A DNA stretch of 64,000 bases from a virus. Numbering within the stretch: the first letter of the stretch is position 1; the number at the start of each line of letters is the position of its first letter. The stretch is from IMG/VR virus record IMGVR_UViG_3300014137_000003. One strand, written 5' to 3'. Made by a program: the position numbers and the translations under genes. Shown in pieces: positions 1 to 64,000 of the stretch. The notes beneath the pieces were generated by a model. That model was not told where the DNA came from and searched no databases. It saw only the letters and a list, made by a program, of their open reading frames with translations.

Positions 1-417
1 GAAATCTCTTTCTTAAAGTTAGATTTTTCTTCCCTTAAACCTGAGTGGTTTGACATTGAAAGTAGAGAAATCAGAGAAGACGTTGTCGATGGTATCTTTG
101 AGTATTTCCTTAAACTGGCAATACGCTTAGGGGTAGAGGAGCCTAGTTGCTTAGAACAAGGCAAACTTCTTAGACGAGTTTTCCAAACACCTCAACTTAA
201 GGAGGGTACTTACAGGGCTTTCATTTGGGAGCCAGGCTCCATAATAGTAATACTTCTAACTAAAGATGAGGACTCCATTTATGTTGAATCTTCTGAAGCA
301 TTTACGAAGATACTCTTAGATGGAGAGTACGATTTCAACATTGGCTTTGACCATAGTGGTGGTATGGAGGCTGTGGAGCGTATGCTTAGGTGTGGGTGCG
401 AAGAAGTTATCGTGTAA
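1..417 (+). CDS. 3' end of a CDS entering from upstream (hypothetical protein)
   Basis: Frame 1 is open from nt 1 to TAA at 415-417 (ends ...GMEAVERMLRCGCEEVIV). It is absent from the ORF track because it has no start inside the window. Confidence 0.5.
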   Translation, partial: EISFLKLDFSSLKPEWFDIESREIREDVVDGIFEYFLKLAIRLGVEEPSCLEQGKLLRRVFQTPQLKEGTYRAFIWEPGSIIVILLTKDEDSIYVESSEAFTKILLDGEYDFNIGFDHSGGMEAVERMLRCGCEEVIV

Positions 418-468
418 CTCTTTAGTGCAGTCACTAATTACCGAATGTTTTAAATAGAAAGGCTAAAA

Positions 469-1800
469 ATGACATTTAATCCAAAAAGTAAAATGGACCG
501 AGTCCTAATCGTGGACTTCAATCACATGGCTCACAACTTCTCCTATGGAGGGGTACGGCTAACTAAGCAGATGGCAGTAGGTAATACTATTGAAACGGTA
601 GATACAACTATTGCTAACGGTACTATCAAAAACATCTTTAACTGGTCACGTGGTGGTCAGGTTCCTACGGTAGTTTGTTTTGATAGACCTTGTCCTAGTA
701 GGAAGGCTTACTTCATGACAGAGCAGTCTGAAGGAGTCGACGGTGAGTACAAAGGAAAACGTGAGTCTATGTCTCAGAGTATGTTTTCGGGTGTTGCTTT
801 AGCTCAGGATTACCTTGAGCGAGGAGGGGTATCTTGCCTAGCCCTACATAACTGGGAGGCAGATGACCTAGTTTTCCTAGCAATCCAACAAGCTAAACGA
901 CAGTACCCTAATCATTACATTGATTTGGTAACTAATGATGCTGACATGTTACCTTTGGTAGACGAGCAGGTATCGGTCTTCTTTAGAAGTAAGAAATTTA
1001 CTTGGGCTACAGATAAGTTCTTAGAAAAGAATCGGTATATGCAGGTAACTCCAGAAAATTACCAAGAAGTTATCGAAGGTCTTTCTAGTTTTAAGAACTT
1101 ATATGTTCCTTACAATAGCTTACTCCTTTATAAGGTATTGCGTGGTGACGTTGCTGATGGTATTGTTTCTCCGTTCCCTAAGGGTACGATGACACCTAGA
1201 CGTCTAGCTAGTATTGTATGGCAGTTGGAAAATGGGGTACTCGAAGAAGGTTTCTCATTAGCTTTTAGCGTTGGTTCTAATATTCCAGTTGGTATCAAAA
1301 CTACTAAGCCAAAAGCAATTTATCTCTTCGAAGAGTCTGAATATGCCGATTTTATAGAGTCTGCGTTTAGGCATAATAGTGATGGTAGTAGGGTAACGTA
1401 TGATTTATCGAAATTATTTGTTTATACCCCTAACCAGAAGAGTTACCACTTGTTGGATGGTAGTGAGCTAAGCTTAAAAGAAGCTAAGGCTATCATGGAC
1501 GATTTTAAATCCCAAGAAGGTTGGGAGAACAAGGAACGTCCTATTGAAATCAGGTATAACGACAACCCATTGCTAGACAAAATGGTTGAGGCTTTATCTC
1601 TTGTAGGCTTAACTGAAGAAGAGTGTGCTACTTTTAGAAAGCAATATAGGGGTATGAACTTAGCACAGGCTTTCCCTAACTTACCTCAGAATATTAAAAG
1701 GCTACCGAAGAAGCTTAATAGTATCAGTGGGTATGACGGAAGGGTGCTTAACTCGGTTGTTAATGTGTTGGGAATTAACTTAAATTCCCGTTACCTTTAG
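469..1800 (+). CDS. 5'-3' exonuclease / flap endonuclease (PIN-FEN fold) with extra C-terminal region
   Basis: Motifs LIVDFNHMAH, YKGKR, WEADDLVF and LVTNDADMLPLV match the acidic-site pattern of Pol I 5'-nuclease / phage T5 D15-type FENs. The RBS-like aaagg lies upstream. Confidence 0.75.
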   Translation: MTFNPKSKMDRVLIVDFNHMAHNFSYGGVRLTKQMAVGNTIETVDTTIANGTIKNIFNWSRGGQVPTVVCFDRPCPSRKAYFMTEQSEGVDGEYKGKRESMSQSMFSGVALAQDYLERGGVSCLALHNWEADDLVFLAIQQAKRQYPNHYIDLVTNDADMLPLVDEQVSVFFRSKKFTWATDKFLEKNRYMQVTPENYQEVIEGLSSFKNLYVPYNSLLLYKVLRGDVADGIVSPFPKGTMTPRRLASIVWQLENGVLEEGFSLAFSVGSNIPVGIKTTKPKAIYLFEESEYADFIESAFRHNSDGSRVTYDLSKLFVYTPNQKSYHLLDGSELSLKEAKAIMDDFKSQEGWENKERPIEIRYNDNPLLDKMVEALSLVGLTEEECATFRKQYRGMNLAQAFPNLPQNIKRLPKKLNSISGYDGRVLNSVVNVLGINLNSRYL

Positions 1801-1809
1801 GTAAACAAT

Positions 1810-1835
1810 GAGGTCTTATGACCTCTTTTATTTTT
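1810..1835 (+). terminator. rho-independent terminator
   Basis: GAGGTC-ttat-GACCTC perfect hairpin followed by TTTTATTTTT. Confidence 0.6.
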
Positions 1836-1867
1836 GTTTTCCGAATCTATCATCTCTTCTCTTAAAT

Positions 1868-1876
1868 TGTTATACT
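1868..1876 (+). promoter_or_regulatory. extended -10 promoter element (TGtTATACT) upstream of the adhesin gene
   Basis: TG at 1868-1869 and TATACT at 1871-1876, about 50 nt upstream of the ATG at 1927. Confidence 0.4.
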
Positions 1877-1926
1877 CTTTGTGTATTTCAAAAATACAGT
1901 TTTATATCTATATTTTGAGGTGACTT

Positions 1927-4900
1927 ATGAAAGAAATTAAGTTAGTTAGTAAACAAGGTTTCCGTATGTGGAAATCAGGTAAAATTTGGTTAACTTCTGG
2001 TGCCGTTGCAGGTGTGGCAGTAGTAGCCCTTGCAGGAGGTACTGTTAAAGCGGATGAAAATACTGCAGCAACAACTTCGGGTGCACCGACAACTGCCGTA
2101 ACTGCTCCAGCTCCTGCAGCAACAACTGCACCAGCAGCTCCGGTGGCAGCTACTACAACTCCAGCTCCAGCAGCAACAACTCCAGCTCCAGCAGCAACTG
2201 CTGAAACTCCTGCAGCTACAACAACTGCTCCAGCAACTTCAACTGCTCCATCTGAACCTACTGGCGTAGCCGTAACTGAGGGTTCTATTACAAATGATAC
2301 TGCCACTGGTTTGGCAGCTAATAACCTTAAGGATGCAGCAGCAGGTCGTTCTGAAGAAGGAAAACAAGCTGATTCTAACGCAGGTAAAGTTACTGGTGAA
2401 ACATCAGTATCTATCGACCACAAAGAAGTAACTGACGCAGCTAAAAAGGCTGAAGGTGTTGGTGTAAAAGTGGTTCAAGACCCTACATCTGTAGCTCCTA
2501 CAGCATCAAATGCATCACAAGCTGAAAAATCTAAAGGTTCAATCGTAGCTAAAGAGCATGCAAAAGCAGAAGAATTGAAATCAACTGCTACTGCACATTC
2601 AACTGCAGTGTCTAACTGGACAGCAGAAAAGAATTCTGTAGTTAAAGCAAATGAAGATTTGAATAATGCTCACAAATCAGCAGTCGAAGCTTACAACAAA
2701 TTTGTATCAACTTTAGATGCAGATACTGCAGCAGTAGTTGCAAAACACAAAGATGCTATCATCAAAACTACTGAAAAAGTACAAAACCTTGCTGACGGTT
2801 CTACCGTAGAGGGGTATCAAGCTTACATTAAATCACTCGCTGATCAACAAGCTTTGAACAAACAAGCTATTGCTGATTACTTGGCTAAAAAGGCAGAATT
2901 CGATGCAACTTCTGCTAAAGCTAAAGCAACTGTAGCAGAAAATGCTAGTCTTTCTGCTAGTGTAGTAGCTAAGAACAACAGCCTTTCTGCAAGTGTTGTA
3001 GCTAAAAACAACAGTCTTTCTGCAAGTGCAGTAGCAGAAACTGCTAGTCGTTCTAACTCTGCGAAAGCTGAAAACGAACGTTTGTCTCTATCAGCACAAA
3101 AAGCTACTGATGGTACTAACGCTACTGCATCAAACGCAGCTAAAAAAGTCAATGACGAAGCTAATGCCTACAACAAATCTGTTATGGAAGCAGCAGGTCT
3201 TCAATGGACTGGTGATTACGCTAAAGATAGTGCCACTGTAGAAGCTTACAACTCTAAGAAATCAAAAGAAGCTAACTCTTCTGAAGACCCAGTATTTAAC
3301 GGTGGTTACGACCGTAATCAAGCTCTTCCAGCAGCAGCTAACGGTTACACACCTAGCGGATCTTCAACTATGTTGAGCAAGGTTGAAGTTGCACCAGGTA
3401 TTGAAGCCATCGCAACTGGTGACCTTACACAACACGGTGCTAAAGTTCACTTGCGTGGTGATAATGTTAACCCAGCTAAAATCGTTACAAAAGTAAACTG
3501 GGGTAACGTCGAACTTGAAGGTGATAACAAACGTACTTTCGTACCAGGTGACAACAATGACATTTGGGGTAACACTTATGGATATGCAAGTGGTGGAGCT
3601 AATCGTTTCTACATTGTAAACCAACTTCAATGGTACAAGATTCCTAATGGTGCCACTACAATGGATGGTACAGTTCATGACCTTTGGGTAATGTTCCACA
3701 AAGATGCAACAGGTTTGCACCCAGCTTATCAAACTGGTGAAGTAGCCGTTTGGAACGCAAATGGTGCAGTTAACGCCATTGACGGTGGTACAGAACACCT
3801 TAGCGACCGCCCAGGGGATGGTATTCGTGCAGTCTACTCTCTAGACACACCTGACAACCATGACCCAGAAGTTCTTTGGATGGAATTGATTGCTGACATC
3901 GACGGTGGTCAAATGATGCAAGATATTGGGGGTATGAAGATCCTCGGTGTCGGTGGTGGTTTCGCTACTGACTCTGTAGTTACTAATAACCCTCGTGTAG
4001 ACGAACAACTTGGTTACGAGTATGGTATCGGACGTAACGATAAGTCTGCATTGAATGGTTACAATTCATCACCAGATGGTACTCTCCTTGCAATCGGTTC
4101 AGGTCTCTTCACTTATGTAGTTCGTAACACACCAGGTGGTAACAGTACAGGTGTTGCCCGTGCTGACTTCGGTGGTGATGCAACTACATCAGTAGCACTC
4201 GTTAAGAAGTTTAATCCTATCACTCTTAAACCTTTGACTTCTTACAACCCAGGTAAATCTGAGTACACTCCAGTAACTTTCAAACCTGCTGAGTTTACTC
4301 CAGAGAAGTTCACTCCAGAAAACTTCACTCCGAAAGAAGTTCCTAACGTTCCTCAAGCTCCAACATTGAGCTTGACTAAACTTACTGACCCAGCTAAACC
4401 TAAGCTTAAAGAAGTTCCTAAAGAACCTCAAGCTCCAACAGTTCACTACAATTTGACAGCTTTGAATGTTAACACACCTGTTGACAAGTCTGTTGAAAAT
4501 GAAGATGGCGTTGACATCAATGGTCAGTCTGTTGCTAAAGGTTCTGTAAACGTATTTAAACTTTCTCCAAAAGCTCTTTCAGCTGGTCGTCCTGTTACGG
4601 AATCTATCGTAAACAGCGACTACATCGACAATGGTTTGGAAACTCTTGTTGATAAAGTCAAAGAAGACAACAGCAAGGCTTATGATGTAACTTATGATGC
4701 AACAACTCGTTTGTTGACATTCAAAGCTAACGCATCTGAAATTGCTCGTGCGAATGCTGATCGCTCTAAAGAGTACACACCAACTCCAATCAAAGTTACT
4801 TACAAAGTGCTTAACGATGCAGCAATGTATGAAAATACATTCAAGATGGATGTGAACGGTGGTGCTACTACTGGTAAGGGGTATACATCATATTCTAACA

Positions 4901-6291
4901 AAGTTCGTATTTACACACCAGGTAAACCAAACAATCCTAACGACCCACAAAACCCAAATGGTGGGGGTAACCATAAGATTCAACCAGTTAAGAACAATAC
5001 CAACAAAGAAGGTAAAAATATTAACGGTAAGACTCTCCTCCAAAACGACGTAAACTACTACGTTGCAGAGTGGGATATGGACCAATACATCAATGATAAA
5101 TCTTCTAAATCAGCTATTGCTGAAGGTTTCGGTTATCTTGATAACCCACAAGACGATGCTTTAGAGGGTATCGAAAAAGACTTTAAAGCAGTTGATGCTA
5201 AAGGTAATGATGTTACTAAAGAGTTGAACTTCTACAAAGCTGACTCAGCTAAGTTGTCTGAATTGCCAGAAGAAGCTCAAAAACTAATTAAGAAGAGCGG
5301 TATTGATGTATCTAACTTCGGTACATTCTACGTTTGGACAGCTAAAGATAACCAAGCATTCTACGACAAGTATGTGAAGACTGGTACTGATATCTTCTTC
5401 AACTTACCAATGTCTATTAAAAAAGGCTTTACTGGTGACTACACTAACCAAACATGGCAAATTGACTTCGGTAACGGATACACTGGTAACATTGTTAAAA
5501 ACGACGTACCAGGTTTGACTCCTAAGAAAGATGTCATCGTAGATGGTAAATCTTCTGACGGAGCAACAGTTGCTTACGGTCAAGAGTTCCAATACTTGCT
5601 TAACGGTGCTATCATCCCAGGAAACCGTGGGGAAGCTCTTTGGGAATACAAATACCTCGATGATTACGATCAAACAGGTGACAAATTCCTTGGAACATAC
5701 ACTGTGAAAGCTACTACAGATGTTACTGTAGCACACAAAGTTACTCTTACAGAGGATACAACTTACAAAGAAGATGTTACTCTTGAAGACGGAACTGTTG
5801 TAAAAGCAGGTCAAACTGTTCGTAAGGGTTCTGTAGTGAAAGTGAAAGAAGTACTTGCTAAGGGTACTGACTTGACTAAGTACACTACTATGGAACACAA
5901 TGCTACAGATGGTATCGTAACTATCGCATTCAAGGAAGACTTCCTTGCATCTATCGTAGATGACAGCAAGTTCGGTGCTGATGCAGCTCTTGACTTCAAA
6001 CGTATTGCTTACGGTACTTTTGAAAACACTTACATCAACCGTGTAAACGGGGTAGACTACATCTCTAACACTGTTAAGACAACTACTCCTAAACCAGAAA
6101 CACCAAAACCTAACACACCAACTCCTAACACACCAACTCCTAGCACTCCAACTCCAGCTCCAGCGCCAGAGAAGAAAGTGTTGCCTCATACTGGTGAAGA
6201 AAAATCAGCTATGGGTATTGTAGGTGGATTGATGGCTCTCATGTCTCTTGTTGGTATTGGTATGGGTACTAAACGTACTAAAGAAGACTAA
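1927..6291 (+). CDS. antigen I/II (SpaP/SspB/PAc)-family LPxTG cell-wall-anchored adhesin
   Basis: KxYKxGKxW-type signal peptide (FRMWKSGKIW). Ala/Thr/Pro-rich N-terminus, Ala-rich coiled-coil A-region, globular V-like region, Pro-rich P-region (FTPEKFTPENFTPKEVP...PKEPQAPTVHYN), C-terminal domains and a TP-rich wall spacer. Ends with LPHTGE + TM + KRTKED. Confidence 0.85.
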   Translation: MKEIKLVSKQGFRMWKSGKIWLTSGAVAGVAVVALAGGTVKADENTAATTSGAPTTAVTAPAPAATTAPAAPVAATTTPAPAATTPAPAATAETPAATTTAPATSTAPSEPTGVAVTEGSITNDTATGLAANNLKDAAAGRSEEGKQADSNAGKVTGETSVSIDHKEVTDAAKKAEGVGVKVVQDPTSVAPTASNASQAEKSKGSIVAKEHAKAEELKSTATAHSTAVSNWTAEKNSVVKANEDLNNAHKSAVEAYNKFVSTLDADTAAVVAKHKDAIIKTTEKVQNLADGSTVEGYQAYIKSLADQQALNKQAIADYLAKKAEFDATSAKAKATVAENASLSASVVAKNNSLSASVVAKNNSLSASAVAETASRSNSAKAENERLSLSAQKATDGTNATASNAAKKVNDEANAYNKSVMEAAGLQWTGDYAKDSATVEAYNSKKSKEANSSEDPVFNGGYDRNQALPAAANGYTPSGSSTMLSKVEVAPGIEAIATGDLTQHGAKVHLRGDNVNPAKIVTKVNWGNVELEGDNKRTFVPGDNNDIWGNTYGYASGGANRFYIVNQLQWYKIPNGATTMDGTVHDLWVMFHKDATGLHPAYQTGEVAVWNANGAVNAIDGGTEHLSDRPGDGIRAVYSLDTPDNHDPEVLWMELIADIDGGQMMQDIGGMKILGVGGGFATDSVVTNNPRVDEQLGYEYGIGRNDKSALNGYNSSPDGTLLAIGSGLFTYVVRNTPGGNSTGVARADFGGDATTSVALVKKFNPITLKPLTSYNPGKSEYTPVTFKPAEFTPEKFTPENFTPKEVPNVPQAPTLSLTKLTDPAKPKLKEVPKEPQAPTVHYNLTALNVNTPVDKSVENEDGVDINGQSVAKGSVNVFKLSPKALSAGRPVTESIVNSDYIDNGLETLVDKVKEDNSKAYDVTYDATTRLLTFKANASEIARANADRSKEYTPTPIKVTYKVLNDAAMYENTFKMDVNGGATTGKGYTSYSNKVRIYTPGKPNNPNDPQNPNGGGNHKIQPVKNNTNKEGKNINGKTLLQNDVNYYVAEWDMDQYINDKSSKSAIAEGFGYLDNPQDDALEGIEKDFKAVDAKGNDVTKELNFYKADSAKLSELPEEAQKLIKKSGIDVSNFGTFYVWTAKDNQAFYDKYVKTGTDIFFNLPMSIKKGFTGDYTNQTWQIDFGNGYTGNIVKNDVPGLTPKKDVIVDGKSSDGATVAYGQEFQYLLNGAIIPGNRGEALWEYKYLDDYDQTGDKFLGTYTVKATTDVTVAHKVTLTEDTTYKEDVTLEDGTVVKAGQTVRKGSVVKVKEVLAKGTDLTKYTTMEHNATDGIVTIAFKEDFLASIVDDSKFGADAALDFKRIAYGTFENTYINRVNGVDYISNTVKTTTPKPETPKPNTPTPNTPTPSTPTPAPAPEKKVLPHTGEEKSAMGIVGGLMALMSLVGIGMGTKRTKED
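2941..3039 (+). repeat. 3 x 33-nt in-frame tandem repeat (11-aa units ..SLSASVVAKNN..) inside the adhesin A-region
   Basis: Units at 2941-2973, 2974-3006 and 3007-3039, read directly (NASLSASVVAK / NNSLSASVVAK / NNSLSASAVAE). Confidence 0.8.
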
Positions 6292-10561: not shown

Positions 10562-10720
10562 ATGAAATTATTATTCAGTTTGATACTCTTTGCAGTAGCA
10601 TTTATCTTCTTTGTGTGGGCGTTGTCTTACTTAGCTATTGCGTTAGCTATCTTTGGGGTAGTCGTGGTAGGGGGTATCTTATTCTTGGTTATTCGCCTTG
10701 CGTGGTGTCTTACACGGTAG
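10562..10720 (+). CDS. 52-aa strongly hydrophobic peptide (two predicted TM segments); not in the ORF track
   Basis: ATG 10562, TAG 10718-10720, encoding MKLLFSLILFAVAFIFFVWALSYLAIALAIFGVVVVGGILFLVIRLAWCLTR. Has an aaagg RBS-like element and its own -10. Confidence 0.4.
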   Translation: MKLLFSLILFAVAFIFFVWALSYLAIALAIFGVVVVGGILFLVIRLAWCLTR

Positions 10721-10751
10721 TGGTAGGGCTGATATACTAGGTATCGTTTTA

Positions 10752-12447: not shown

Positions 12448-12491
12448 GCTTATATGGGCTTGTATTTTATTTTGTAGGAGGTATTTATTAG

Positions 12492-53844: not shown

Positions 53845-53929
53845 CTATTACCAGATACTTGTTTTATTCCTCGATATTTTATATACTATTTATAGGTCTT
53901 TTATATTTTATATTTTGAAAGGAGTTTTT

Positions 53930-55969
53930 ATGTCCAATAAAAACTTAGATAGCTATGGTATTGATAGCTTGAAGAAGCTGAAGGGTGCAGAACCTATTCG
54001 TAAACGTCCAGCCTCTATGTTAGGTAGTGAAGGTCTTGATGGTGCGAAACACACCTTTTGGGAAATTGTAGGTAATGCTTTCGATGAAGTTTCATCGGGG
54101 TATGGTGACCGAATTGAAATTAGGTTTTACCCAGAAGATGGCTCGATTTCTGTACGAGATTTCGGTCGTGGTGTTCCTCTTACTTGGTCTGAGAAGGAAC
54201 AGGACTGGGGTTGGTCTATCGTTTATAACACTCTCTATGCAGGGGGTAAAATGGATGACCCTAAAACAGTGCTTATCGGTTTCGATGACTGGGACAACTT
54301 TAAATTCTCTAACTATTCTTATCTAGCATCTATTGGATTGAATGGGGTAGGGGCAGCTTGTTCTCAGTTTACTTCAGAATACTTTGATGTAGTTTCTTAC
54401 CGTGATGGGAAAGAGTACTCTATGCACTTTGAGAAAGGTTATCCAGCTTGGGAAGAGTTGCATGTTGCTGAACAAACCCAACCAAATGGTACATTTGTAA
54501 AATGGAAACCTGATGCAGAGGTATTTACGGATGTAAACATTACTTTTGCTTGGCTTAAGTCTGTATGTGAGGATATGTCTTATGTGTCAGGGGTAGATGT
54601 AATTCTGTCTGACGGCAAGAAAGAAATCACTTATTCTGCATCAAACATTAAGGAACATTTAGCAAGTCGTGTTGGTTCTTTTGTTGCTGAGTCTTCTTAT
54701 CTACACCATGAAGACCTTGAAGATAAGGAAGGGAATGTAGTAGGTGTCCTTGTCTGTGAGGCTAATGTAGTAATGTCAGGAAAAGGTGCAGGAGTTCGTT
54801 ACTTCAACAACCAGGTTAAGGTTGTAGGAGGGGTACACGAGGATTATTCTCGTTCTGCTATCGTGAATTTCTATAAAGCTAAAGGTAAAGAACAAGGAAT
54901 CAAATTGCTTGATGGGGATATTCTAGGGCAGTACTCTATGATTATCACAACTTTGGCTAATGAAAAATCTTATCGTGGTCAAACTAAGGACTCTATTGAT
55001 AACCCTTATATTGGTGATGCAATTTACTATGCAATTAACAAATTGCTTAGTAATTCTTGGTTAAAAGAAGAAGACTGGTGTAAGAAAATCCTTGAACGTG
55101 CTATCACTTCTGCTACAATTAGGGAAGCAGCTAAGGCAGCTGAAGCTCAAATCAAGGAAGCAAACAAAAAGATTAACAAACCTACTATGCCAGACAAGTT
55201 CGTATCTTGTGAGGCATCACTTAAAGGTAATTATAAAGAAGTTGAACTTTACATTGTAGAGGGGGACTCAGCTAAAGGTTCAACAGTAGCAGCCAGGGAC
55301 TCTAGATTTCAGGCAGTTCTTCCAGTTAGGGGTAAAACTCTGAATACAGCTAAGGCTACAGTTGAAAAGGTGCTTAACAACAAAGAAGCAGTTGAAATTA
55401 TGAATGTTGTTGGGGCTGGTATGACTGTAGAGGAAGAAGGGTACAGTCTCTTCAATTTAGATAATTTAAAAGTTGGTAAGGTTATCCTCATGACCGATGC
55501 CGATGAAGATGGTAAGCACATTAAGGCTTTGCTAGTTACTTTTATTTACAAGTATATGCGTCCTCTCTTGGAAGAAGGTTTAGTTTATCTTGCTAACCCT
55601 CCGAAATACCATGCGAACGGGGTATATTACTATACTGAGGAAGAATTCCAAAAAGCCCGAGAAGAAGGTAAGGTAGGTAAGAAATATGACCGTTATAAAG
55701 GGTTAGGGCAGATGGACCCTCAACCTCTTTGGGATACTACTATGAATCCTGAGACTCGTATCTTAACTCAAGTTAAAATTGATAAGGATGATTTTGAGGC
55801 TGAAAGAGCTATTGAAATCATGTCAGGTTCTGATGCATCCATCCGTAAACAATTTGTACTGGAAGCATTAATGGACGGGGATTACGAGGATTCTTTAGAG
55901 GCGTTAAACGAAGTACTAAAGGAAATGGAGTTCGAGGATGAACTTGAAATCGAAGAAATCTACTACTAG
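53930..55969 (+). CDS. type IIA DNA topoisomerase, ATPase/Toprim subunit (GyrB/ParE-like)
   Basis: GHKL motifs WEIVGNAFDE, VRDFGRGVP and GLNGVGAA. Toprim motifs ELYIVEGDSAKGS, QAVLPVRGKTLN and ILMTDADEDGKHI. Tail YKGLGQMDPQPLWDTTMNPETR. The ATG at 53930 has an AAAGGAG RBS. Confidence 0.85.
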   Translation: MSNKNLDSYGIDSLKKLKGAEPIRKRPASMLGSEGLDGAKHTFWEIVGNAFDEVSSGYGDRIEIRFYPEDGSISVRDFGRGVPLTWSEKEQDWGWSIVYNTLYAGGKMDDPKTVLIGFDDWDNFKFSNYSYLASIGLNGVGAACSQFTSEYFDVVSYRDGKEYSMHFEKGYPAWEELHVAEQTQPNGTFVKWKPDAEVFTDVNITFAWLKSVCEDMSYVSGVDVILSDGKKEITYSASNIKEHLASRVGSFVAESSYLHHEDLEDKEGNVVGVLVCEANVVMSGKGAGVRYFNNQVKVVGGVHEDYSRSAIVNFYKAKGKEQGIKLLDGDILGQYSMIITTLANEKSYRGQTKDSIDNPYIGDAIYYAINKLLSNSWLKEEDWCKKILERAITSATIREAAKAAEAQIKEANKKINKPTMPDKFVSCEASLKGNYKEVELYIVEGDSAKGSTVAARDSRFQAVLPVRGKTLNTAKATVEKVLNNKEAVEIMNVVGAGMTVEEEGYSLFNLDNLKVGKVILMTDADEDGKHIKALLVTFIYKYMRPLLEEGLVYLANPPKYHANGVYYYTEEEFQKAREEGKVGKKYDRYKGLGQMDPQPLWDTTMNPETRILTQVKIDKDDFEAERAIEIMSGSDASIRKQFVLEALMDGDYEDSLEALNEVLKEMEFEDELEIEEIYY

Positions 55970-56468
55970 TTTCCGTGAGAGGGTTAAGGGTTGGCAAGTT
56001 AATCTTGGCACTCTTATTCTTCCAATGGTTATTATTATGTTACTTTTGTCTCTGTACTTGGTAGGAAGAGGTAATCACGCTTTATTCTACAATACTAAGT
56101 ATTTTGAGTCAACTGAGTTGTTGTATAAGAAACCAGATACTTACTCCTTATCTGATATGAAGGTAGACATCAAAAGCACATATTACACAATTAAAGAAGT
56201 TGTTTATGTCTTTAGGTCTGTCGGAACTAAGTTCAATGTATCTGAAGGAATTCTCACTCAGGGGTATTACTTGGGCATGTACGGACCAGTTCTTTGGGTG
56301 GTAGGTGTTTCTTTCCTATACATTGTTTGGGAATTGTTTAAGTGTTTCGCTTATGCGAAAGGAATAAGAGCAAAAATCAAAGAAAATAAATGGTGGGGGC
56401 GTGGATTTGTTCTAGCTTGTATCCTATTTGTAATTCTTGTATTGCAGTTACTCTTCCCTTTACTATAA
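55938..56468 (+). CDS. membrane protein (three TMs), unknown function, between the two topoisomerase genes
   Basis: ORF overlapping the end of the B-subunit gene by 32 nt; hydrophobic segments at the N-terminus, middle and C-terminus. Confidence 0.5.
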   Translation: MNLKSKKSTTSFRERVKGWQVNLGTLILPMVIIMLLLSLYLVGRGNHALFYNTKYFESTELLYKKPDTYSLSDMKVDIKSTYYTIKEVVYVFRSVGTKFNVSEGILTQGYYLGMYGPVLWVVGVSFLYIVWELFKCFAYAKGIRAKIKENKWWGRGFVLACILFVILVLQLLFPLL

Positions 56469-56617
56469 ATAAGTATAGTTCAGAATTTTCGTTAATTTCA
56501 CTAACACTTATTTTAGTATCTTGATTCGTTTTATTTTTAGCCCTTAAAATAGCTATATTTTGGTAGGAATTACTTACATTTTTAGTAGTTAATTCCTTTG
56601 TTTTATAGTTGGTTTAG

Positions 56618-56626
56618 TGGTAAAAT
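56618..56626 (+). promoter_or_regulatory. extended -10 promoter element (TGgTAAAAT)
   Basis: Read directly, about 30 nt upstream of the topoisomerase A-subunit start. Confidence 0.45.
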
Positions 56627-56654
56627 GTAGTATAGAATATTTTTGGAGGTCGTT

Positions 56655-58865
56655 TTGGCTAATTTATATAATGGTAGTTCAGAAGGATTAAAACAAGTAA
56701 TAGAAGGTTTTCGTGACTACTCTATCGAGGTAGCTATTAACCGTTCTTTTCCTAGTATCGTCGATGGTCTTAAGACTTCTCAGAGACGTATTCCTTATGT
56801 ATTATACAAAGAAAAGGTATTTTCTCTAACTAAGTCTAATAAAGTAGTTGGGTATATCATGGCTTATCACCCCCATGGGGATGGTGCAATTTATGATACA
56901 GCAGTCCGTATGGTTGACTCCAACGGCTCTATTACTCCCCCTATGCTTAAAGGGGAGGGAAATCTAGGACTATCTTATTCTGATGCAAGTGCAGCTCATC
57001 AACGTTACACTAGTATGTGTCTTTTGGATTCTGCTAAAGACTTGTTCTTAAGAGATTTGGACGGTGTTCCTTGGAAGCCTACTGAGACTGATGAAGGTCT
57101 TGAACCAGTTTATCTTCCAGCTCGATTCCCTATGGCTCTTACAGCCTCTGTACAGGGTTTGGGAGTGGGTATCGCTAATAAGATTCCATCTTTTAACTTT
57201 GGGGATGTAGTGAAGCTCACTAAAGAGTACATTGCTGACGGTTGTCAATTCAATAATCAAATTATTTACCCAGACCTTCCAAATGGGGGTGTCGTGGTAG
57301 CTAATAATAGCGAGATGGCTAAGGTTATGGCAACTGGTCGTGGTAAGATTAAATCTAAGTCACGTATTTCGGTGAATAAGCGTGATGTTCTTATTGAAGA
57401 GTTACCTTACATTATGACTGACGGCAAGGTAATAGATAAGATTAAATCTCTTATTCGCTCAAGTAAAACTAAGAAACTTAATAATGGGGAACTAAATCCT
57501 TATTATGGAAAGTTTCCTTATGTAACTTCGGAGAACCAGGTTATTCTTACTTCTGACCTAAAAGGTTTCGGTATTAAAATTACTTGTCGTAAGGCAGCAG
57601 ACGTAGAACCTATGTTGTTAGAGTTGGCACGTAGGAATATCACTCAAAATAATTACACTTCTAACATGATTTTCACAAATGGTGATAGACTTGTGATGAC
57701 TGGTGTCTATGGGGTAATCAGGGAGTGGTTTGCCAAACGCAAGGAGATTTTGACTCGTAAGTTTAACAAACAGATTGATGCCCTCTCAAAAGAGTTGCCT
57801 ATCTTAGATTACTTTATCCGTCTAATTTCAAATGATGAGCATAAAAACAAGTATTTGGATATTATCGCCAACGAAGGGGTATATGCAGCTAACGAGTACT
57901 TAGAAGAAATCTTTGAAGGTATTTCGAGTGAAGCTTGTGATTGGATTTCTAAGCGACGTGCTAATGCATTCCTTAATGGTGGTAAATATGCCAAACGTTT
58001 TGAGGATATCACAAATACAATTGAGCTTTACAAAGGTTACTTGGCTGACCTTAATACTTATATTTACGACGACTTAACAGAAATCGAAAATAAGTATGCT
58101 CATCTTTACCCTCGTAAGACTGAGATTACGTTTAAAGACTATAAGTTTGTTAAACGTGAAGAAGTTGTAGAAGTAGACGATTCTTACTGTGGTTATGTCT
58201 TGTATAAGGACGGAACTATTCAAAAAGCCTCATCAGTTGAAGGCTTTAAGGACATGGAAAGCGTAGCTCAGATTATTGAAGGTCGTGCTAATAGCTTGTT
58301 GGTAGGTTTCGATTATGTGGGTAATCTTCTCCGTATTTATGGTGATGAGTTGCCTTATGGTAAGACTAACTTACAAACTTATCTAGGGGTAGCAGGGCTT
58401 GTAGAAGACTACAAAGTCATGTACTTAACTGTAGCTGATGGTAGCGTTAAGCGTTTGTTGTACCGTGATGGTAAGATGTCTGTACTAGACACTAACGAGT
58501 TTCTTCGTAAAAAACAACGTAAACGTTTCGTTCGAAATGGGGTACCAGAGGATGTTAATACTAACTTGGTAGAAGTCTTCAATGAAGAAGATTTGGACGA
58601 GTATTTGTATGTTGCTGATGAGACGAAAGACCTCAAACTAGGGGTAGTAGCTTGGAAGAACTTACCAGTGAAATCTCGTCTAGGTAAGACACGTGCCTTT
58701 AGTGGTAGCAAGGATATGAATATCACTCAATATGGTACTTGTGACTTAGAAGCTTGCCACTCTTACTTTACAAATATGGAAAGTTTTGAAGGTAAGTTGC
58801 GTAAGGTGAAAGAAGGAGACGTTTCCTTTGATGGAACTGAGTTTGAGAAAGGTAGGTTCGTATAA
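56655..58865 (+). CDS. type IIA DNA topoisomerase, DNA breakage-reunion subunit (GyrA/ParC-like)
   Basis: NRSFPSIVDGLKTSQRRIPYVL, YHPHGDGAIYDTAVRMV and the catalytic-Tyr context AAHQRYTSMCL. The TTG at 56655 (GGAGG 5 nt upstream) is preferred over the TTG at 56643. No ATG is available. Confidence 0.85.
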   Translation: MANLYNGSSEGLKQVIEGFRDYSIEVAINRSFPSIVDGLKTSQRRIPYVLYKEKVFSLTKSNKVVGYIMAYHPHGDGAIYDTAVRMVDSNGSITPPMLKGEGNLGLSYSDASAAHQRYTSMCLLDSAKDLFLRDLDGVPWKPTETDEGLEPVYLPARFPMALTASVQGLGVGIANKIPSFNFGDVVKLTKEYIADGCQFNNQIIYPDLPNGGVVVANNSEMAKVMATGRGKIKSKSRISVNKRDVLIEELPYIMTDGKVIDKIKSLIRSSKTKKLNNGELNPYYGKFPYVTSENQVILTSDLKGFGIKITCRKAADVEPMLLELARRNITQNNYTSNMIFTNGDRLVMTGVYGVIREWFAKRKEILTRKFNKQIDALSKELPILDYFIRLISNDEHKNKYLDIIANEGVYAANEYLEEIFEGISSEACDWISKRRANAFLNGGKYAKRFEDITNTIELYKGYLADLNTYIYDDLTEIENKYAHLYPRKTEITFKDYKFVKREEVVEVDDSYCGYVLYKDGTIQKASSVEGFKDMESVAQIIEGRANSLLVGFDYVGNLLRIYGDELPYGKTNLQTYLGVAGLVEDYKVMYLTVADGSVKRLLYRDGKMSVLDTNEFLRKKQRKRFVRNGVPEDVNTNLVEVFNEEDLDEYLYVADETKDLKLGVVAWKNLPVKSRLGKTRAFSGSKDMNITQYGTCDLEACHSYFTNMESFEGKLRKVKEGDVSFDGTEFEKGRFV

Positions 58866-59333: not shown

Positions 59334-60827
59334 TTGCCAGAGGATTATGTAGTTCTTTCTCCCGAGCAAAGGCTGAAGAGTTTTGGGGATATTCTTCTTG
59401 CGAGTGCTTTAGGAAAAAGTGAAACAGCAATAAAAAATAGGCAATTTCTTTTCGGTAATGCTAGAACTGAGTTATTTAGGGACGAGTGTTTCATTATTTA
59501 CTCTCTTCTATATAAGTTCAAGGATAGGAATATTTCTATCGACGAAGAGTTTGTTAAACTTTCTCTTATGCACCAGCAGGATATTATTGAGACTGCCTCT
59601 AACATAAGGAAGATTGACATTAACTCCTACGGTGATATAGATGACTCACCTGCATTGGGGTATATTGGTGGGGTAATGAAGTACTTCGCTAATCTATCGA
59701 AGATGGACAAGGTACTCCCAGATGAATTTCAACTTGTATTTGAGAAATATCTCATTGAATACAAGGCGATTGAAACTTCACAGGTTTACGCTGATAGTCT
59801 TCAGATTATTGGTGATGGTCTAAAAGTAGGTCGTAAGACCTTACAAGGTTTTGAAGCAAGTCGTGACTACGTTAAGAATAACTTAGCTAGAATTGAGGGA
59901 GTCGTAGACCAAAACAAGGGTGTAGGGTTTGTAAATATGTCCGAGGTCATCCTAAATCCTAAACAAGAAAGTCAGTCTGTTAAAATCTCCGACTTTGGTG
60001 CTATTGAAGAGCTTAACAACCACTATGGGGGTATCTATACGGGTAACCTTTACACTGTAATGGCTCCATCTAAGTCAGGTAAGTCTAAGTTTTGTGCTAG
60101 ACTTTCCCACACTGCAATGGTTAACTACGGTGTAAACGTATCTGTTTGGGCTTTCGAGGGTGGTTTCGAGGCATGGACAGCTCAGATGAGGGCTATCCAC
60201 TTCGACTACACTTATAATACAGGGGCGTCTGCAACTGAGGTTAAGGTTGGGGTAACTCAGGGGGCTATCTTACACGACAAGTTTCCAGAGGGTAGCCCAT
60301 ATCGTGAGTTGGAAGCTACTTCTAAGCTAGACTTAGCTAGTAATTCGGCTTATGGTAGTATGCACTTTATCGATAGACCTTTTAAGGTTGAGACTTTCCT
60401 AGATGAGATTGACGCATCTATTAAAGCTAACAATTCTCAAATGCTTGTAATTGACTATCTTCAACTTATTGACTCTGAGAAGTCTATGAGTGAACGTGAG
60501 CGTATTGCTACGGCATACCCCCGTTTGTTGGAGTATTGTAAGAAAAACAATATTGCAGTAGTTTCTCCAGCCCAGTACAAACAGGATGTTGTTGATGAGT
60601 TGCAACGCAAAAAAGAGGGTGAGTCTCGTGATATGCGTACAGCAGGTGGTGGTTCTTATGAGATTATTAAGACTTCCGATGTTATCTTTGCTCTTTGGGC
60701 AAGCACGGAGGACCTTACTAATAACAAGATGACCATTATGCCTATGCCAACTCGTTTTTACGATGCAATTCCAGAGTTTGACATTTATGTAGACTTGGGG
60801 TATTGCCAGTTTAGGTCGCTTAATTAA
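59334..60827 (+). CDS. DnaB-like replicative helicase (RecA-fold hexameric helicase family)
   Basis: Walker A VMAPSKSGKSKF, Walker B/DnaB signature MLVIDYLQLI, and ..AVVSPAQYKQ.. TTG start preceded by GGGGG. Confidence 0.8.
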   Translation: MPEDYVVLSPEQRLKSFGDILLASALGKSETAIKNRQFLFGNARTELFRDECFIIYSLLYKFKDRNISIDEEFVKLSLMHQQDIIETASNIRKIDINSYGDIDDSPALGYIGGVMKYFANLSKMDKVLPDEFQLVFEKYLIEYKAIETSQVYADSLQIIGDGLKVGRKTLQGFEASRDYVKNNLARIEGVVDQNKGVGFVNMSEVILNPKQESQSVKISDFGAIEELNNHYGGIYTGNLYTVMAPSKSGKSKFCARLSHTAMVNYGVNVSVWAFEGGFEAWTAQMRAIHFDYTYNTGASATEVKVGVTQGAILHDKFPEGSPYRELEATSKLDLASNSAYGSMHFIDRPFKVETFLDEIDASIKANNSQMLVIDYLQLIDSEKSMSERERIATAYPRLLEYCKKNNIAVVSPAQYKQDVVDELQRKKEGESRDMRTAGGGSYEIIKTSDVIFALWASTEDLTNNKMTIMPMPTRFYDAIPEFDIYVDLGYCQFRSLN

Positions 60828-63124: not shown

Positions 63125-63189
63125 GTTGTAAGTCTTAAATTGCTTTATTTTTAGTATCTTTTATTTATATTTTGGAGGAAAATTATTTT

Positions 63190-63807
63190 ATGGCTACAAA
63201 AGATGAAATTTTATTAAATCGTTTCCTAGCTCGTATGGAGAGGGAACCGGATGACGTTCAACATTCTGTTGTACGTTATGCAGAAAACTTAATGAACGGT
63301 TGTAACTGGGCGTTTATCTCGTCTAAGTCTGCAACTTACACTTTAGAAACTAAGGCTTTTGAAAAGTCTAACTTGGTAACTGTTTATAAAGTTAAGAATG
63401 GGGTACTTATCACTACCCCTATCGAAACTATCTTTAGTATCTTGACTCGTGTAAGTCCAGAACTTTACGACAATAAAGCTAAAGAGGCAGCCCTGGAATT
63501 CCGTAGGAAGTCTGTAGAAAACTTTGTAAGTTTCTTACGTTCAGGTGTTAAGCAAGCGAAAATTGGTATCTTCAACCTAAATGATAGCCCGAACATCACA
63601 ATTAGTGGTCAGGTTTATAAGGCTTTCAACATGGATTTGGCAAATGTCGCCATGTTCTTGCGTGATGCGGGGTACTCATTAGTTATTGGTGGTCGTAAGG
63701 TTCCAGCATCTTACGCTCTAATTCAAGCAAACTATCCTAAATTGCTTTCTCAGCTTGAGCTTGCTCCTAGTGGGAATGGTTTGATGCTAGATATCGTTAA
63801 GGGGTAA
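63190..63807 (+). CDS. hypothetical protein
   Basis: ATG 63190 downstream of GGAGG (63174-78); the track start TTG 63172 lacks an RBS. Confidence 0.6.
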   Translation: MATKDEILLNRFLARMEREPDDVQHSVVRYAENLMNGCNWAFISSKSATYTLETKAFEKSNLVTVYKVKNGVLITTPIETIFSILTRVSPELYDNKAKEAALEFRRKSVENFVSFLRSGVKQAKIGIFNLNDSPNITISGQVYKAFNMDLANVAMFLRDAGYSLVIGGRKVPASYALIQANYPKLLSQLELAPSGNGLMLDIVKG

Positions 63808-63845
63808 TTATCTAAGTCCTATTTAGTACTTCCTTTATTGTCTGT

Positions 63846-63873
63846 AATTCCCTTGTATTTCAAGGGAATTTTT
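63846..63873 (+). terminator. rho-independent terminator
   Basis: Perfect 10-bp hairpin AATTCCCTTG-tattt-CAAGGGAATT followed by TTT. Confidence 0.7.
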
Positions 63874-63881
63874 GGTAAAAT
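63873..63881 (+). promoter_or_regulatory. extended -10 promoter element (TGgTAAAAT)
   Basis: Overlaps the terminator T-tail; about 30 nt upstream of the ATG at 63913. Confidence 0.4.
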
Positions 63882-63912
63882 AGTTTAAAAGAATTTAGTA
63901 AGGATTTTGTAC

Positions 63913-64000
63913 ATGACAAATTTCAGCATATTTGAGTCCAATTTAAGTGGATATTTTGGTGGAAACGTTAAAAGGTCCCACATTGAAGACCTAGTAGAAG
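63913..64000 (+). CDS. 5' end of a CDS running out of the window
   Basis: ATG 63913 with an AAGGA RBS. Open to the window end (MTNFSIFESNLSGYFGGNVKRSHIEDLVE..). Confidence 0.4.
   Translation, partial: MTNFSIFESNLSGYFGGNVKRSHIEDLVE

Follow-up and report, generated by a model that had tools for sequence, protein, structure and literature searches.

A polar GGGGTA word in a giant element related to plasmid pXO16 and its possible role in priming

The window, meaning the whole 64,000-nt stretch that was analysed, is by sequence comparison part of a giant conjugative plasmid of the pXO16 family, and a distant relative of pXO16 itself. Its coding, G-rich strand carries a dense array of the hexamer GGGGTA. 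It is a family-specific signal acting at the level of DNA or RNA; other co-oriented elements, and plasmids sharing the FtsK-like and VirB4-like genes, are without it. The best explanation (probability roughly 0.4) is that the word may tell the split DnaG-type primase of the element where to prime the displaced or transferred strand. A GGGGTA-type word of this plasmid family appears to be undescribed so far; the reviews of pXO16 that were covered mention the common gene orientation and not the word.

Exact counting gave 164 copies of GGGGTA on the + strand and 6 of TACCCC; the original prediction had put them at about 160 and about 6, and its observation is correct and stronger than it stated. 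GGGGTA ranked first when all hexamers of the window (G+C 38%) were counted. Markov models, which had been proposed as a check, gave 15, 24, 37, 57 and 122 expected copies at order 0, 1, 2, 3 and 4. TACCCC was at the chance level of these models (about 4 expected), and the signal is thus enrichment of one orientation and not avoidance of the other.

1..64000, + strand: GGGGTA array, 164 copies by exact count
1425, 18085, 20491, 43880, 60516 and 63414: the six TACCCC reverse copies, at chance level

The copies were distributed 73/43/37 by reading frame, with a further 11 in 3.4 kb of non-coding DNA. Against 154 copies observed in genes, synonymous-codon shuffling of each gene gave 38.4±5.0 (z=23) and codon permutation 21.6±4.8, and all three frames were separately enriched over the shuffles. 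Codon-preserving shuffles, named beforehand as a control, therefore fail to reproduce the count. The claims that the word is no artefact of codons or composition, and that selection acts at the level of the nucleotide sequence, are upheld by the shuffles, the Markov models and the enrichment in all frames and in non-coding DNA. The excess over synonymous shuffles and the enrichment in all frames and in non-coding DNA were seen in four lineages. The single-base variants GGGGTT, GGGGTG, GGGGTC and GGGGAA showed no enrichment. The mean gap in the window was 391 nt. Copies of the word were spaced more evenly than chance (coefficient of variation of the gaps 0.71-0.79, vs 1.0 for random placement).

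Stretches with few or no copies, and copies lying in a hairpin loop or near start codons, were located as follows.

10675..12689, + strand: tnpB-like insertion without GGGGTA (ORF 10860-12212; flanking copies at 10655, 10671 and 12689)
24677..26151, + strand: second motif-free stretch, 1.48 kb, spanning ORF 24942-25820 and the start of the DnaX-like gene
1927..6291, + strand: antigen I/II-type LPXTG adhesin gene of atypical composition (G+C 0.40-0.44, GC skew ~0)
30463..30486, + strand: terminator-like hairpin agcttg-GGGGTAgcctc-aagctt followed by a T-run, with the motif in the loop
41432..41447, + strand: GGGGTA in Shine-Dalgarno position, 7 nt upstream of the ATG at 41445
59324, + strand: similar copy near a start, 4 nt upstream of the TTG at 59334

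The tnpB-like ORF was the sole window ORF of at least 400 aa without the word. As predicted, this recent insert (10671-12689) and the second stretch (24671-26152) were motif-free, and the word was sparse in the adhesin gene, where 7 copies in 4.4 kb are still above chance. The copy said to lie in a terminator loop (30469) and the ribosome-binding copies before the starts at 41445 and 59334 were likewise seen in the sequence, and some short-spacer copies have, we infer, been co-opted as Shine-Dalgarno sequences. Several positions given earlier required correction: the non-coding copy from 6430 to 6431, the loop copy from 30470 to 30469, one TACCCC from 1435 to 1425, and the ribosome-binding copies from 41421, 49567 and 59326 to 41432, 49598 and 59324.

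The element had been treated as isolated; this view was abandoned, as it belongs to the pXO16 family, throughout which the word is conserved. pXO16 (pBTHD789-1 / pAM65-52-2-350K) is a 350-kb aggregation-mediated conjugative plasmid of Bacillus thuringiensis sv. israelensis. The two have a common gene order, namely AAA ATPase, metal-dependent hydrolase, giant membrane protein, VirB4-like, FtsK-like, hypothetical, SpoVG, helicase, GyrB-like, GyrA, DnaB-like, CHC2 zinc finger, non-specific endonuclease, NAD ligase, PolA and Toprim. Their proteins are 26-38% identical, both have all their genes on a single coding strand, and both carry the polar word. They differ in host (Bacillus for pXO16, an uncultured oral host for the window element), G+C (33% vs 38%), element size, adhesins and flanking preference (A-GGGGTA-G/T in pXO16 vs GGGGTA-T in the window). 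The following genes of the window were identified.

469..1800, + strand: 5'-3' exonuclease (FEN-like, Okazaki primer removal)
25918..27228, + strand: DnaX-like clamp-loader ATPase
32800..37671, + strand: 1623-aa membrane protein of the transfer-gene block (36% identity to pXO16, E=2e-178)
44215..46296, + strand: 693-aa ATPase-like protein (38% identity to pXO16, E=5e-151), with more distant Bacillus plasmid homologues annotated DUF87
47414..49597, + strand: FtsK/SpoIIIE-family ATPase, motor domain only (26% identity to the pXO16 protein), probably serving the Tcp/pCW3-like T4SS as coupling ATPase
50476..50775, + strand: SpoVG-family nucleic-acid-binding protein, its position after the FtsK-like gene kept in pXO16
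53915..58865, + strand: type II topoisomerase genes, GyrB-like (53915-55969) and GyrA-like (56643-58865), of the element's own replication module
59334..60827, + strand: DnaB-like replicative helicase (37% identity to the pXO16 protein)

On the complete 350-kb pXO16 circle GGGGTA was divided 657:5 between the strands, with 12-27 copies in each 10-kb bin, a longest gap of 2.1 kb and positive GC skew in all bins. Polarity was constant round this complete circle, without a switch point; the word does not form a two-replichore pattern of KOPS or Chi type. On a plasmid co-resident with pXO16 the division was 6:7. The word is specific to the element family and not to the host, as the original prediction had supposed. 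A 4.4-kb ORF-free, hairpin-rich region of pXO16 held 8 copies, all on the + strand; because this is normal density, the word does not depend on translation. GC skew in that region was near 0, with the word still enriched. Transfer of pXO16 is reported to be as ssDNA and to take about 4 minutes (PMC6199540).

Across the family the word occurs about once per 400-500 nt, as GGGGTA[T] in the window and AGGGGTA[G/T] in pXO16, while sister oral clades have GGGTAT[C] and [C/G]GGTATC. The GGTA core is invariant and the information shifts stepwise along GGGGTATC. Since the word is kept in Bacillus and oral hosts while shifting around this core, the pattern suggests a drifting, element-encoded protein reader. 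In a 232-kb oral relative the polarity held through at least 149 kb; the best-covered oral relative was covered in all but about 36% of its length. No such word was found in other co-oriented giant elements, comprising oral elements at 24%, 30-32% and 39% G+C and a 215-kb B. velezensis plasmid, on which GGGGTA reaches 27:1 by skew alone. Bacillus plasmids with FtsK-like and VirB4-like homologues were also without the word, and in these no DnaB-like or Toprim homologue was detectable. In PLSDB, homologues of both the DnaB-like helicase and the Toprim primase were present in 10 pXO16 records only, all carrying the word; this co-occurrence is to be read within few, related records, tblastn thresholds and 34-41 kb covered of the motif-less plasmids.

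A phage-like replisome is encoded by the element: family-A polymerase, DnaB-like helicase, primase, clamp-loader-like ATPase, ligase, FEN-type exonuclease and type II topoisomerase. The CHC2 zinc-finger protein matches DnaG zinc-binding domains (1d0q, 2au3) and the Toprim/DnaG-core protein matches primase (5vaz); these two and the DnaB-like protein are 34-38% identical between pXO16 and the oral elements. The CHC2 protein and the separate Toprim protein would make up a split primase acting with the DnaB-like helicase, for which the word would be the template recognition and start signal. Replication is probably unidirectional or rolling-circle. Replication and ssDNA transfer would then displace the same strand, which would need repeated priming to become double-stranded, and for this reason selection would place evenly spaced start sites on that strand only. 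By the T7 parallel the predicted primer is pppACC(CC), begun opposite the T of the word. Even spacing would be expected if long unprimable stretches were selected against, and the one-polarity circle fits a single displaced strand. A putative cognate reader (CHC2, Toprim and DnaB-like) that is encoded and conserved, its apparent co-occurrence with the word in PLSDB, the high specificity of the word against its single-base variants, and ssDNA transfer of pXO16 were all counted in favour of priming, as were selection on the sequence in four lineages, persistence of the word in the ORF-free region and its conservation across such different hosts. Counted against it were that no primase is known to have a genome-wide hyper-abundant recognition site, that known DnaG enzymes need a triplet only, in place of the six to eight bases under selection here, and that about 15% of pXO16 copies stand exactly at Shine-Dalgarno distance, so that the word has a role at the RNA level as well. 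Because all genes are co-oriented, the polarities of replication, transfer and transcription are inseparable in the sequences covered.

In very long co-directional transcription units the word might instead be read in the mRNA or on the non-template strand of the DNA. It could there recruit an antitermination or processivity factor repeatedly (ops-RfaH-like), bind the conserved plasmid-encoded SpoVG or a sigma-like protein, or offer ribosomes/30S subunits distributed binding sites and so stabilise the mRNA. We regard this as possible though rather unlikely. The word is on the sense strand of all genes, and about 95 of the 657 pXO16 copies stand 3-7 nt before plausible start codons. At -20..-4, GGGGT/GGGTA is as common as AGGAG (22-24% of pXO16 genes, 10 of 50 window genes), and GGGGU is able to pair with the anti-SD sequence. 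The pXO16 AGGGGTAG is similar to the core of ops, GGCGGTAG; genes for SpoVG and for a sigma70-region-4 / alpha-CTD-like protein are present; and a universal reader such as the ribosome would account for conservation across hosts. Against this, canonical SD words are depleted in ORFs (GGAGG 0.36-0.53x, AGGAGG 0.15-0.35x) and other GGGG-containing words are unenriched, so that generic anti-SD pairing is selected against. The clade C word (C/G)GGTATC is not SD-like, ops occurs as single leader-region sites and not as arrays every 400 nt, no NusG/RfaH-type domain was found in the roughly 55 window ORFs scanned, and the other co-oriented giant elements listed above lack the word.

It is doubtful that the word is a Chi-like or protective self-mark, by which the DNA would be spared or repaired by a helicase-nuclease or by a non-specific endonuclease or exonuclease that the element itself encodes, or a private identity tag distinguishing the plasmid from host and competitor DNA. 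Absence from foreign inserts and from co-resident or unrelated elements would agree with such a mark, as would the conservation in the family of a DNA/RNA non-specific endonuclease, a 5'-3' exonuclease and several helicases; even spacing would also cap DNA loss from any break. However, no AddAB/RecBCD-type enzyme was found in the covered parts of the elements. An orienting sequence of KOPS, SRS or TraB-clt type, read by the FtsK/SpoIIIE-family ATPase for directional pumping in transfer or segregation, had been the favoured idea; a dense, strictly polar word and such an ATPase do occur in one element, and 350-kb pXO16 moves within minutes. This ATPase is nevertheless unlikely as the reader, and the idea as a whole very unlikely. 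Only its motor domain was found, with no gamma or winged-helix reader domain detected in a search in which true FtsK proteins showed PF09397. Because the word never changes strand in pXO16, there is no ori/dif convergence of KOPS type, and no such word occurs in the Bacillus plasmids that have homologues of the FtsK-like and VirB4-like genes. pXO16 is also reported to send ssDNA via a Tcp-like T4SS, with direction set by the relaxase-bound 5' end (PMC6199540). Finally, it is scarcely credible that the word is a side effect of base composition, of codon or dipeptide usage or of mutation bias in a replicon with strong GC skew and one coding strand. A GC skew of about +0.2 and purine-rich sense strands do skew many G-rich words, GGT and GTA are among the preferred codons, and the B. 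velezensis relative reaches its bias by skew alone. This account is already contradicted by counts 4-5 times those of synonymous shuffles in each frame (z=23-53), by enrichment in non-coding DNA and in the ORF-free region, by the unenriched neighbouring words and by the over-regular spacing, and equally skewed co-oriented elements lack the word.

Among known systems, Inocles are giant elements resembling plasmids, found in oral Streptococcus (Kiguchi et al. 2025, PMC12340149). Like them, the word-bearing oral elements come from HMP and oral metagenomes, are giant, are absent from isolate genomes, have distinct oligonucleotide usage, and encode gyrase, exonuclease, DNA polymerase, S26 signal peptidase, LPXTG proteins and VirB4/VirD4-like genes. 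Inocles are reported to have 32% or 24% G+C and ORF orientation that switches at ori and ter (PMC12340149), whereas the window element has 38% and one coding strand. The window showed no InoC marker (PF13814), and contigs of 24% and 30-32% G+C having one gene in common with the word-bearing family were without the word.

KOPS, SRS and AIMS are likewise over-represented, strongly skewed G-rich oligomers of the G-rich strand, and an FtsK-family ATPase is encoded here too. The word is 10-30 times denser, unrelated in sequence, without inversion at an origin or convergence at dif, and missing from relatives that retain the ATPase; no gamma domain was detected in the ATPase here. Chi sites (E. coli GCTGGTGG, B. 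subtilis AGCGG, L. lactis GCGCGTG) are also short and G-rich, occur in excess and point along the presumed direction of replication. The word equals none of these, nor any known KOPS or SRS, as originally stated; at 1 per 400 nt, for a word of six or more bases, and a strictness of about 130:1 it is far denser and stricter than known Chi distributions, it is kept across hosts whose Chi differ, and no cognate helicase-nuclease was found for it in the covered parts of the elements.

Primase sites are short template words on the strand that needs priming, as the word would be. The Firmicute DnaG initiation triplet, to which the form of the word is a further parallel, is 5'-(C/T)TA-3' (5'-CTA/TTA-3'), and that of E. 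coli DnaG is 5'-CTG-3', skewed to the lagging-strand template. To our knowledge, no known primase site shows the hyper-abundance, the even spacing or the near-absolute strand bias of the word. The putative primase of the element differs from known enzymes in that zinc finger and Toprim domain are separate proteins; as in DnaG/T7-type systems, a DnaG-type zinc finger and a Toprim domain are encoded beside a DnaB-like helicase, here with a family-A polymerase. The T7 gp4 sites are 5'-GGGTC/TGGTC-3', and at 5'-GGGTC-3', whose 3' base is cryptic, the primer made is pppACCC; in its form of a G-run, a T and one 3' base, the T7 site is nearly identical to the word.

GGGGTA was the most abundant hexamer of the window, with 164 copies against 6 of its reverse complement TACCCC (a strand ratio of 27:1; counts are given as sense:reverse below), in agreement with the one-stranded abundance proposed from the sequence alone. 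Under Markov models of increasing order the expected number of GGGGTA was 15 (order 0), 24, 37, 57 and 122 (maximal order), the last value being high because GGGGT and GGGTA are themselves inflated. TACCCC matched its Markov expectation of about 4, and the effect is therefore an enrichment of one orientation. Coding DNA makes up 95% of the window, with all credible ORFs on the + strand; G+C is 38%, and the GC skew stays at about +0.2 from end to end.

The word (GGGGTA and close variants with a GGTA core) was found, as had also been claimed, in all reading frames and in intergenic DNA, with 73, 43 and 37 copies by frame and 11 copies in 3.4 kb of non-coding DNA. When synonymous codons were shuffled within genes, 38.4±5.0 copies were expected against 154 observed (z=23), each reading frame being separately enriched over the shuffles; permutation of codons in the window genes gave 21.6±4.8. 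The spacing was over-regular, with a coefficient of variation (CV) of the gaps of 0.79, or 0.73 without the tnpB-like insert, against 0.99±0.08 for a Poisson process. Extension into the flanks gave a sole preference, for a 3' T (GGGGTAT 75:2), and otherwise no longer fixed word in the window clade. (The window clade and clades B and C are related oral metagenome elements in which the register of the word is shifted.) The coordinates in the original prediction held approximately, several being a few bases off and two ribosome-binding-site positions being wrong by 11 and 31 bases.

In the window CDS the Arg codon AGG (223) was commoner than AGA (129), and GGG was used 268 times, though GGT is the dominant Gly codon. 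Usage of AGG and GGG appears to be inflated by the word, which falls in the frames AGG-GGT-A and GGG-GTA and therefore shapes codon usage and some dipeptides.

No near match to the window was obtained in PLSDB or INPHARED by megablast with 20-kb window pieces. Window proteins recurred on metagenome contigs of 150–190 kb, and the FtsK-like protein had 77 close relatives, all on metagenome contigs of 100–254 kb, many of them HMP oral. The best plasmid tblastn matches of the window proteins were to pXO16, the 350-kb conjugative plasmid of Bacillus thuringiensis israelensis (NZ_CP013277.1), with 26% identity for the FtsK-like protein; four further proteins were 36–38% identical by BLASTP (E 1e-24 to 2e-178). 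Gene order, read from annotation, was common to both over the transfer and replication blocks (T4SS-like block, FtsK-like, SpoVG, helicase, type II topoisomerase, DnaB-like, CHC2 zinc finger). The shared order and protein identity thus place the window, as a distant relative, within the pXO16 family. The following genes were recognized.

Window and flanks: 5'-3' exonuclease
Window and flanks: antigen I/II adhesin and other LPXTG proteins
Window and flanks: S26 signal peptidase
Window and flanks: non-specific endonuclease
Window and flanks: DnaX-like ATPase
Window and flanks: CHAP hydrolase
Window and flanks: 1623-aa membrane protein; 693-aa ATPase-like protein
Window and flanks: FtsK/SpoIIIE-motor protein; SpoVG
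Window and flanks: SNF2 helicase
Window and flanks: GyrB-like and GyrA-like proteins; DnaB-like helicase
Immediately downstream of the window: stand-alone CHC2 (DnaG-type) zinc-finger protein; NAD ligase
In relatives: family-A DNA polymerase; separate Toprim/DnaG-core protein

The family also encodes an MPTase-PolyVal metallopeptidase domain (L150:1-404, a family locus) and HipA-like kinases. Long tandem arrays of small paralogous ORFs were seen in the relatives' loci L014/L018 and L054, and pXO16 has been reported to be paralogue-rich too.

Oral relatives whose FtsK-like proteins were 42–78% identical to that of the window had GGGGTA or GGGTAT as their top skewed hexamer, and a more distant clade had GGTATC (35–39 vs 0–2 per 20 kb). 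GGTA was the invariant part across all lineages. The word of every clade exceeded synonymous shuffles in all three frames: GGGGTA by 4.0x in the window clade, GGGTAT by 4.3x and GGGTATC by 6.6x in clade B, and GGTATC by 5.0x and GGGTATC by 7.9x in clade C, where the heptamers CGGTATC, GGGTATC and GGTATCC stood at 66:1, 66:0 and 66:0. In 125 kb of one clade B element, GGGTAT stood at 315:3 and GGGTATC at 144:0, with a mean gap of 398 nt (CV 0.78). In complete pXO16, GGGGTA reached 657:5 (131:1) and AGGGGTA 460:2, and AGGGGTAG, at 232:0, was its commonest octamer. Each 10-kb bin of the plasmid contained 12–27 copies and had a positive GC skew; the gap CV was 0.71 and the largest gap 2,071 nt. 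The pXO16 ORFs contained 494 copies, where shuffling gave 115±11 (z=34). Among elements that share 70% amino-acid identity, word positions were only modestly better conserved than those of other preferred-codon hexamers, a difference that is not decisive.

Genome contigs were searched for the host chromosome with the GyrA-like protein, which gave no match, and with antigen I/II, which gave irrelevant weak matches only. The host control relied on surrogates: a Lactococcus contig, a plasmid co-resident with pXO16, and unrelated elements drawn from comparable metagenome assemblies. GGGGTA stood at 6:7 in a 50-kb piece of the co-resident plasmid pBtic360 and at 2:2 in the Lactococcus chromosomal contig. 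Control giant oral elements (24%, 30–32% and 39% G+C), which are co-oriented and skewed and share one membrane-protein gene with the family, had about 0.1 GGGGTA per kb per strand and no bias. In a 215-kb B. velezensis plasmid with homologous transfer genes every gene points the same way and the GC skew is 0.35; its sampled part gave 27:1 with 18 expected, that is, skew without enrichment. The sampled part of a 143-kb B. subtilis plasmid, the one relative with minus-strand blocks, gave 3:1 and thus no word. By these counts the word is not a host trait, nor does it follow from co-orientation or GC skew. A compositional artefact is excluded as its origin.

Two other skewed words were observed. 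GAAGAAG, the reported FtsK-orienting word of Lactococcus/Streptococcus, stood at 43:3 in the window and 282:18 in pXO16; its count was not over the maximal-order Markov expectation, and its skew is probably driven by Glu-Glu/Lys codons. Another co-oriented family (39% G+C, negative GC skew) has its own very abundant polar heptamer, AGAAAGG/GAAAGGA; its loci L085, L087, L094, L104, L129 and L135, which overlap in part and total 124 kb, gave 121:7 and 127:1. It occurs about once per gene and is therefore probably the ribosome-binding site of that family.

The original prediction had proposed looking for a switch point of the skew (ori, dif-like site or oriT); the pXO16 circle, complete at 349.6 kb, showed no inversion. 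Every pXO16 CDS is on the + strand, and no credible minus-strand gene turned up in the window or in about 1 Mb of loci from the family. A 232,299-bp IMG/VR contig of an oral relative (the 239-kb ENA scaffold) was walked with chimeric protein queries over 208,997–232,299 plus 1–125,466 (64% of the contig; relatives extend to about 135 kb), and genes and word were all on a single strand over at least 149 kb. A second contig was of uniform polarity over 133 of 180 kb. Such uniformity differs from the pattern of KOPS, AIMS or Chi, which follows two replichores. The common orientation of all pXO16 CDS has been described, as have the transfer of ssDNA by a T4SS distantly related to that of pCW3 and a transfer time of 3.5–4 minutes (PMC6199540).

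Some copies of the word appear to double as Shine-Dalgarno (SD) sequences. About 95 of the 657 pXO16 copies were located 3–7 nt before plausible start codons, with about 85% elsewhere; upstream of pXO16 genes GGGGT/GGGTA was as common as AGGAG, and about 10 of 50 window genes had word-type sequence in the SD region. Canonical SD words were depleted inside ORFs relative to synonymous shuffles (GGAGG 0.36–0.53x, AGGAGG 0.15–0.35x; GGAGG, AGGAG and AGGAGG jointly 0.15–0.72x). Single-base variants of the word showed no enrichment there; part of their depletion is produced by the shuffling itself, since the word concentrates GGG codons. An ORF-free 4.4-kb region of pXO16 directly 3' of the Toprim gene (L154:39822-44258, NZ_CP013277.1 162,887-167,323) held 8 copies, all on the + strand, despite a GC skew near 0. 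The depletion of SD words and the copies in ORF-free DNA indicate that the signal is neither generic anti-SD pairing nor translation-dependent. GGGGUAUC can pair with the 16S rRNA 3' tail given one bulged base, which is probably coincidental because perfect SD words are depleted. The ORF-free region, which Rfam did not match, is also dense in hairpin-type repeats of about 40 nt (TAGCATAGA...TTGTATGGTGTT) and other inverted repeats. An origin, an oriT or a cluster of single-strand initiation sites are candidate roles for it.

Both stretches in which the motif had been reported as absent were real (tnpB-like insert, 10671-12689; 24671-26152). The tnpB-like ORF was the sole window ORF of at least 400 aa without the word, so that the word could serve as a residence-time clock for DNA in the element. 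Directly before the insert (window 10655-12694) the motif occurs twice at a distance of 16 nt (ctttGGGGTAgtcgtggtagGGGGTAtc); it recurs only at the far end, 12689. Matches of the tnpB-like protein were confined to the identical context, with no link to a host or to other parts of the element. The antigen I/II adhesin gene (window 1927-6291) is of atypical composition (G+C 0.40–0.44, GC skew about 0), and the species-representative genomes of GTDB contained no close relative. With 7 GGGGTA copies present already, the gene looks as if it were gradually gaining the signature of the element. A membrane-protein gene of about 450 aa, sampled at L061:~10000-11300 and at the centres of L070-L149 (loci of its carriers), was shared at 74–92% identity by many giant oral elements and by further oral metagenome contigs of otherwise unrelated appearance (24–40% G+C). 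In motif-poor contexts GGGTATC was 8:0 in 10 kb of regions centred on this gene vs 3:4 in 113 kb of flanks, which suggests that the gene was horizontally exported from the GGGGTA family.

The replication module includes a CHC2 zinc finger (PF01807; matches to 1d0q and 2au3), a Toprim/DNAG_N protein (match to 5vaz) and a DnaB_C helicase. The DnaG-type primase appears to be divided between two proteins, a CHC2 zinc finger that stands alone and a Toprim protein of about 262 aa, whose genes are separated by tens of kilobases (by about 128 kb in pXO16). Both pXO16 and the oral elements have this arrangement (L007:14406-14927 and L042:19096-19884 in relatives, L152:10635-11207 and L154:39036-39821 in pXO16). 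The pXO16 proteins are WP_000365721 (CHC2), WP_000389279 (Toprim) and WP_001162832 (DnaB-like helicase). In PLSDB the VirB4-like protein matched 10 pXO16 records and 11 Bacillus plasmids of 136–216 kb, and the DnaB-like and Toprim proteins matched the 10 pXO16 records only, no homologue of either being detected in those 11 plasmids. The two of these 11 that were sampled, with FtsK-like and VirB4-like genes, had no word. In this small sample the presence of the word goes with the replication module and not with the transfer ATPases.

The reading that best fits the data, to which we give a probability of roughly 0.4, is that the word is a putative strand-specific priming signal. Within a phage-like replisome a zinc-finger protein would act as the reader and the Toprim protein as the catalytic part of the primase, and one strand alone would be loaded with evenly spaced start sites. 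If replication runs with transcription, the G-rich sense strand that carries the word would be the lagging-strand template or displaced strand. The T7 primase site is GGGTC and the Firmicute DnaG triplet is (C/T)TA, both of which the form GGGG-T-A parallels. From clade to clade the information moves from the 5' G-run to a 3' TC, as would be expected of a drifting zinc-finger reader. Uniform polarity in the priming model would imply unidirectional or rolling-circle replication, priming of the transferred strand after ssDNA conjugation, or both. A more far-reaching version, which we regard as rather doubtful, is a replication code private to the pXO16 family and written genome-wide on one strand, in which the evenly spaced GGTA-core word would be both obligatory primase-helicase start and tag of self DNA. 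The transferred or displaced strand of a 200–350-kb plasmid could then become duplex within minutes in any host, the replisome would act on self DNA only, newly acquired genes would have to gain the word gradually, and its register would co-evolve with the zinc-finger reader.

Ranked behind priming are three possible alternatives. The leading one is a signal at the level of transcription or RNA; with no credible minus-strand gene in about 1 Mb, the polarities of replication, transfer and transcription are not separable by sequence alone. A recruitment element of the ops/RfaH type has a single leader site and a NusG paralogue; GGGGTA sites occur every 400 nt, and no NusG/KOW domain was matched among the window ORFs scanned. 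Next comes a self-marking signal similar to Chi. Published Chi words of Bacillus and Lactococcus differ from GGGGTA, as had been pointed out, and GCGCG was present once in the window; GGGGTA is kept in both Bacillus and oral hosts. Ranked third is the orientation of a translocase, for which the element has an FtsK-like ATPase, initially suggested as the reader. In a sequence-level Pfam search, however, only the motor PF01580 was found (PF01935 in some relatives), although PF09397 was present in the true FtsK matches P0078-81 of the same search, and the gamma domain was absent from all 77 close relatives.

Priming would be a concrete mechanism, testable in B. thuringiensis: with sequence-programmed priming of a single strand, it could become clear how 350 kb of pXO16 ssDNA is established in a recipient in so few minutes. 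Were a transcription factor or nuclease the reader instead, the phenomenon would be just as new. The commonest word of a 200–350-kb replicon is here a hexa- to octamer, evenly spaced and uniform around the circle at about 130:1, and is conserved, with sliding register, from a Bacillus plasmid tractable in the laboratory to uncultured giants abundant in human oral metagenomes. It unites two sets of 'terra incognita' elements as one family, provides a simple signature by which members can be recognized and foreign inserts dated, and the kinship ties the abundant oral elements to the accessible pXO16. Full-text literature searches returned no description of GGGGTA-type words or of primase-site strand bias in plasmids; reviews of pXO16 note the common gene orientation and not the word, the original 2015 paper being outside this comparison.

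Among known systems, the Inocle elements of oral Streptococcus live in the same habitat and have many gene types in common with the window element; they are reported with a G+C of 32% or 24%, an ORF orientation that switches at ori and ter, and the marker InoC with a replication-relaxation domain, PF13814 (PMC12340149). The window has 38% G+C and no PF13814 match within its ORFs, although InoC may lie outside it, and no switch was seen in the covered parts of its relatives. An uptake sequence was rejected because DUS/USS are not strand-biased, being about equal on both strands, whereas GGGGTA is 27:1 in the window and 131:1 in pXO16. Evasion of type III restriction was rejected since it would mean avoidance of one orientation, yet TACCCC is at expectation; a G-quadruplex, which would have no TA specificity, was rejected as well. 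We rate the word as belonging among the polar recognition oligomers. Like KOPS/SRS it is a skewed, over-represented oligomer (164:6), but the polarity of those words inverts at the origin and converges on dif, and that of the pXO16-family word did not invert around the pXO16 circle or over at least 149 kb of the oral relative. The strand-polar words known to us (KOPS, Chi, skewed primase triplets) occur once per several kb with a bias of 70–90% and an inversion at ori/ter; to our knowledge the density, strictness, topology and phylogenetic breadth of the present word are without precedent.
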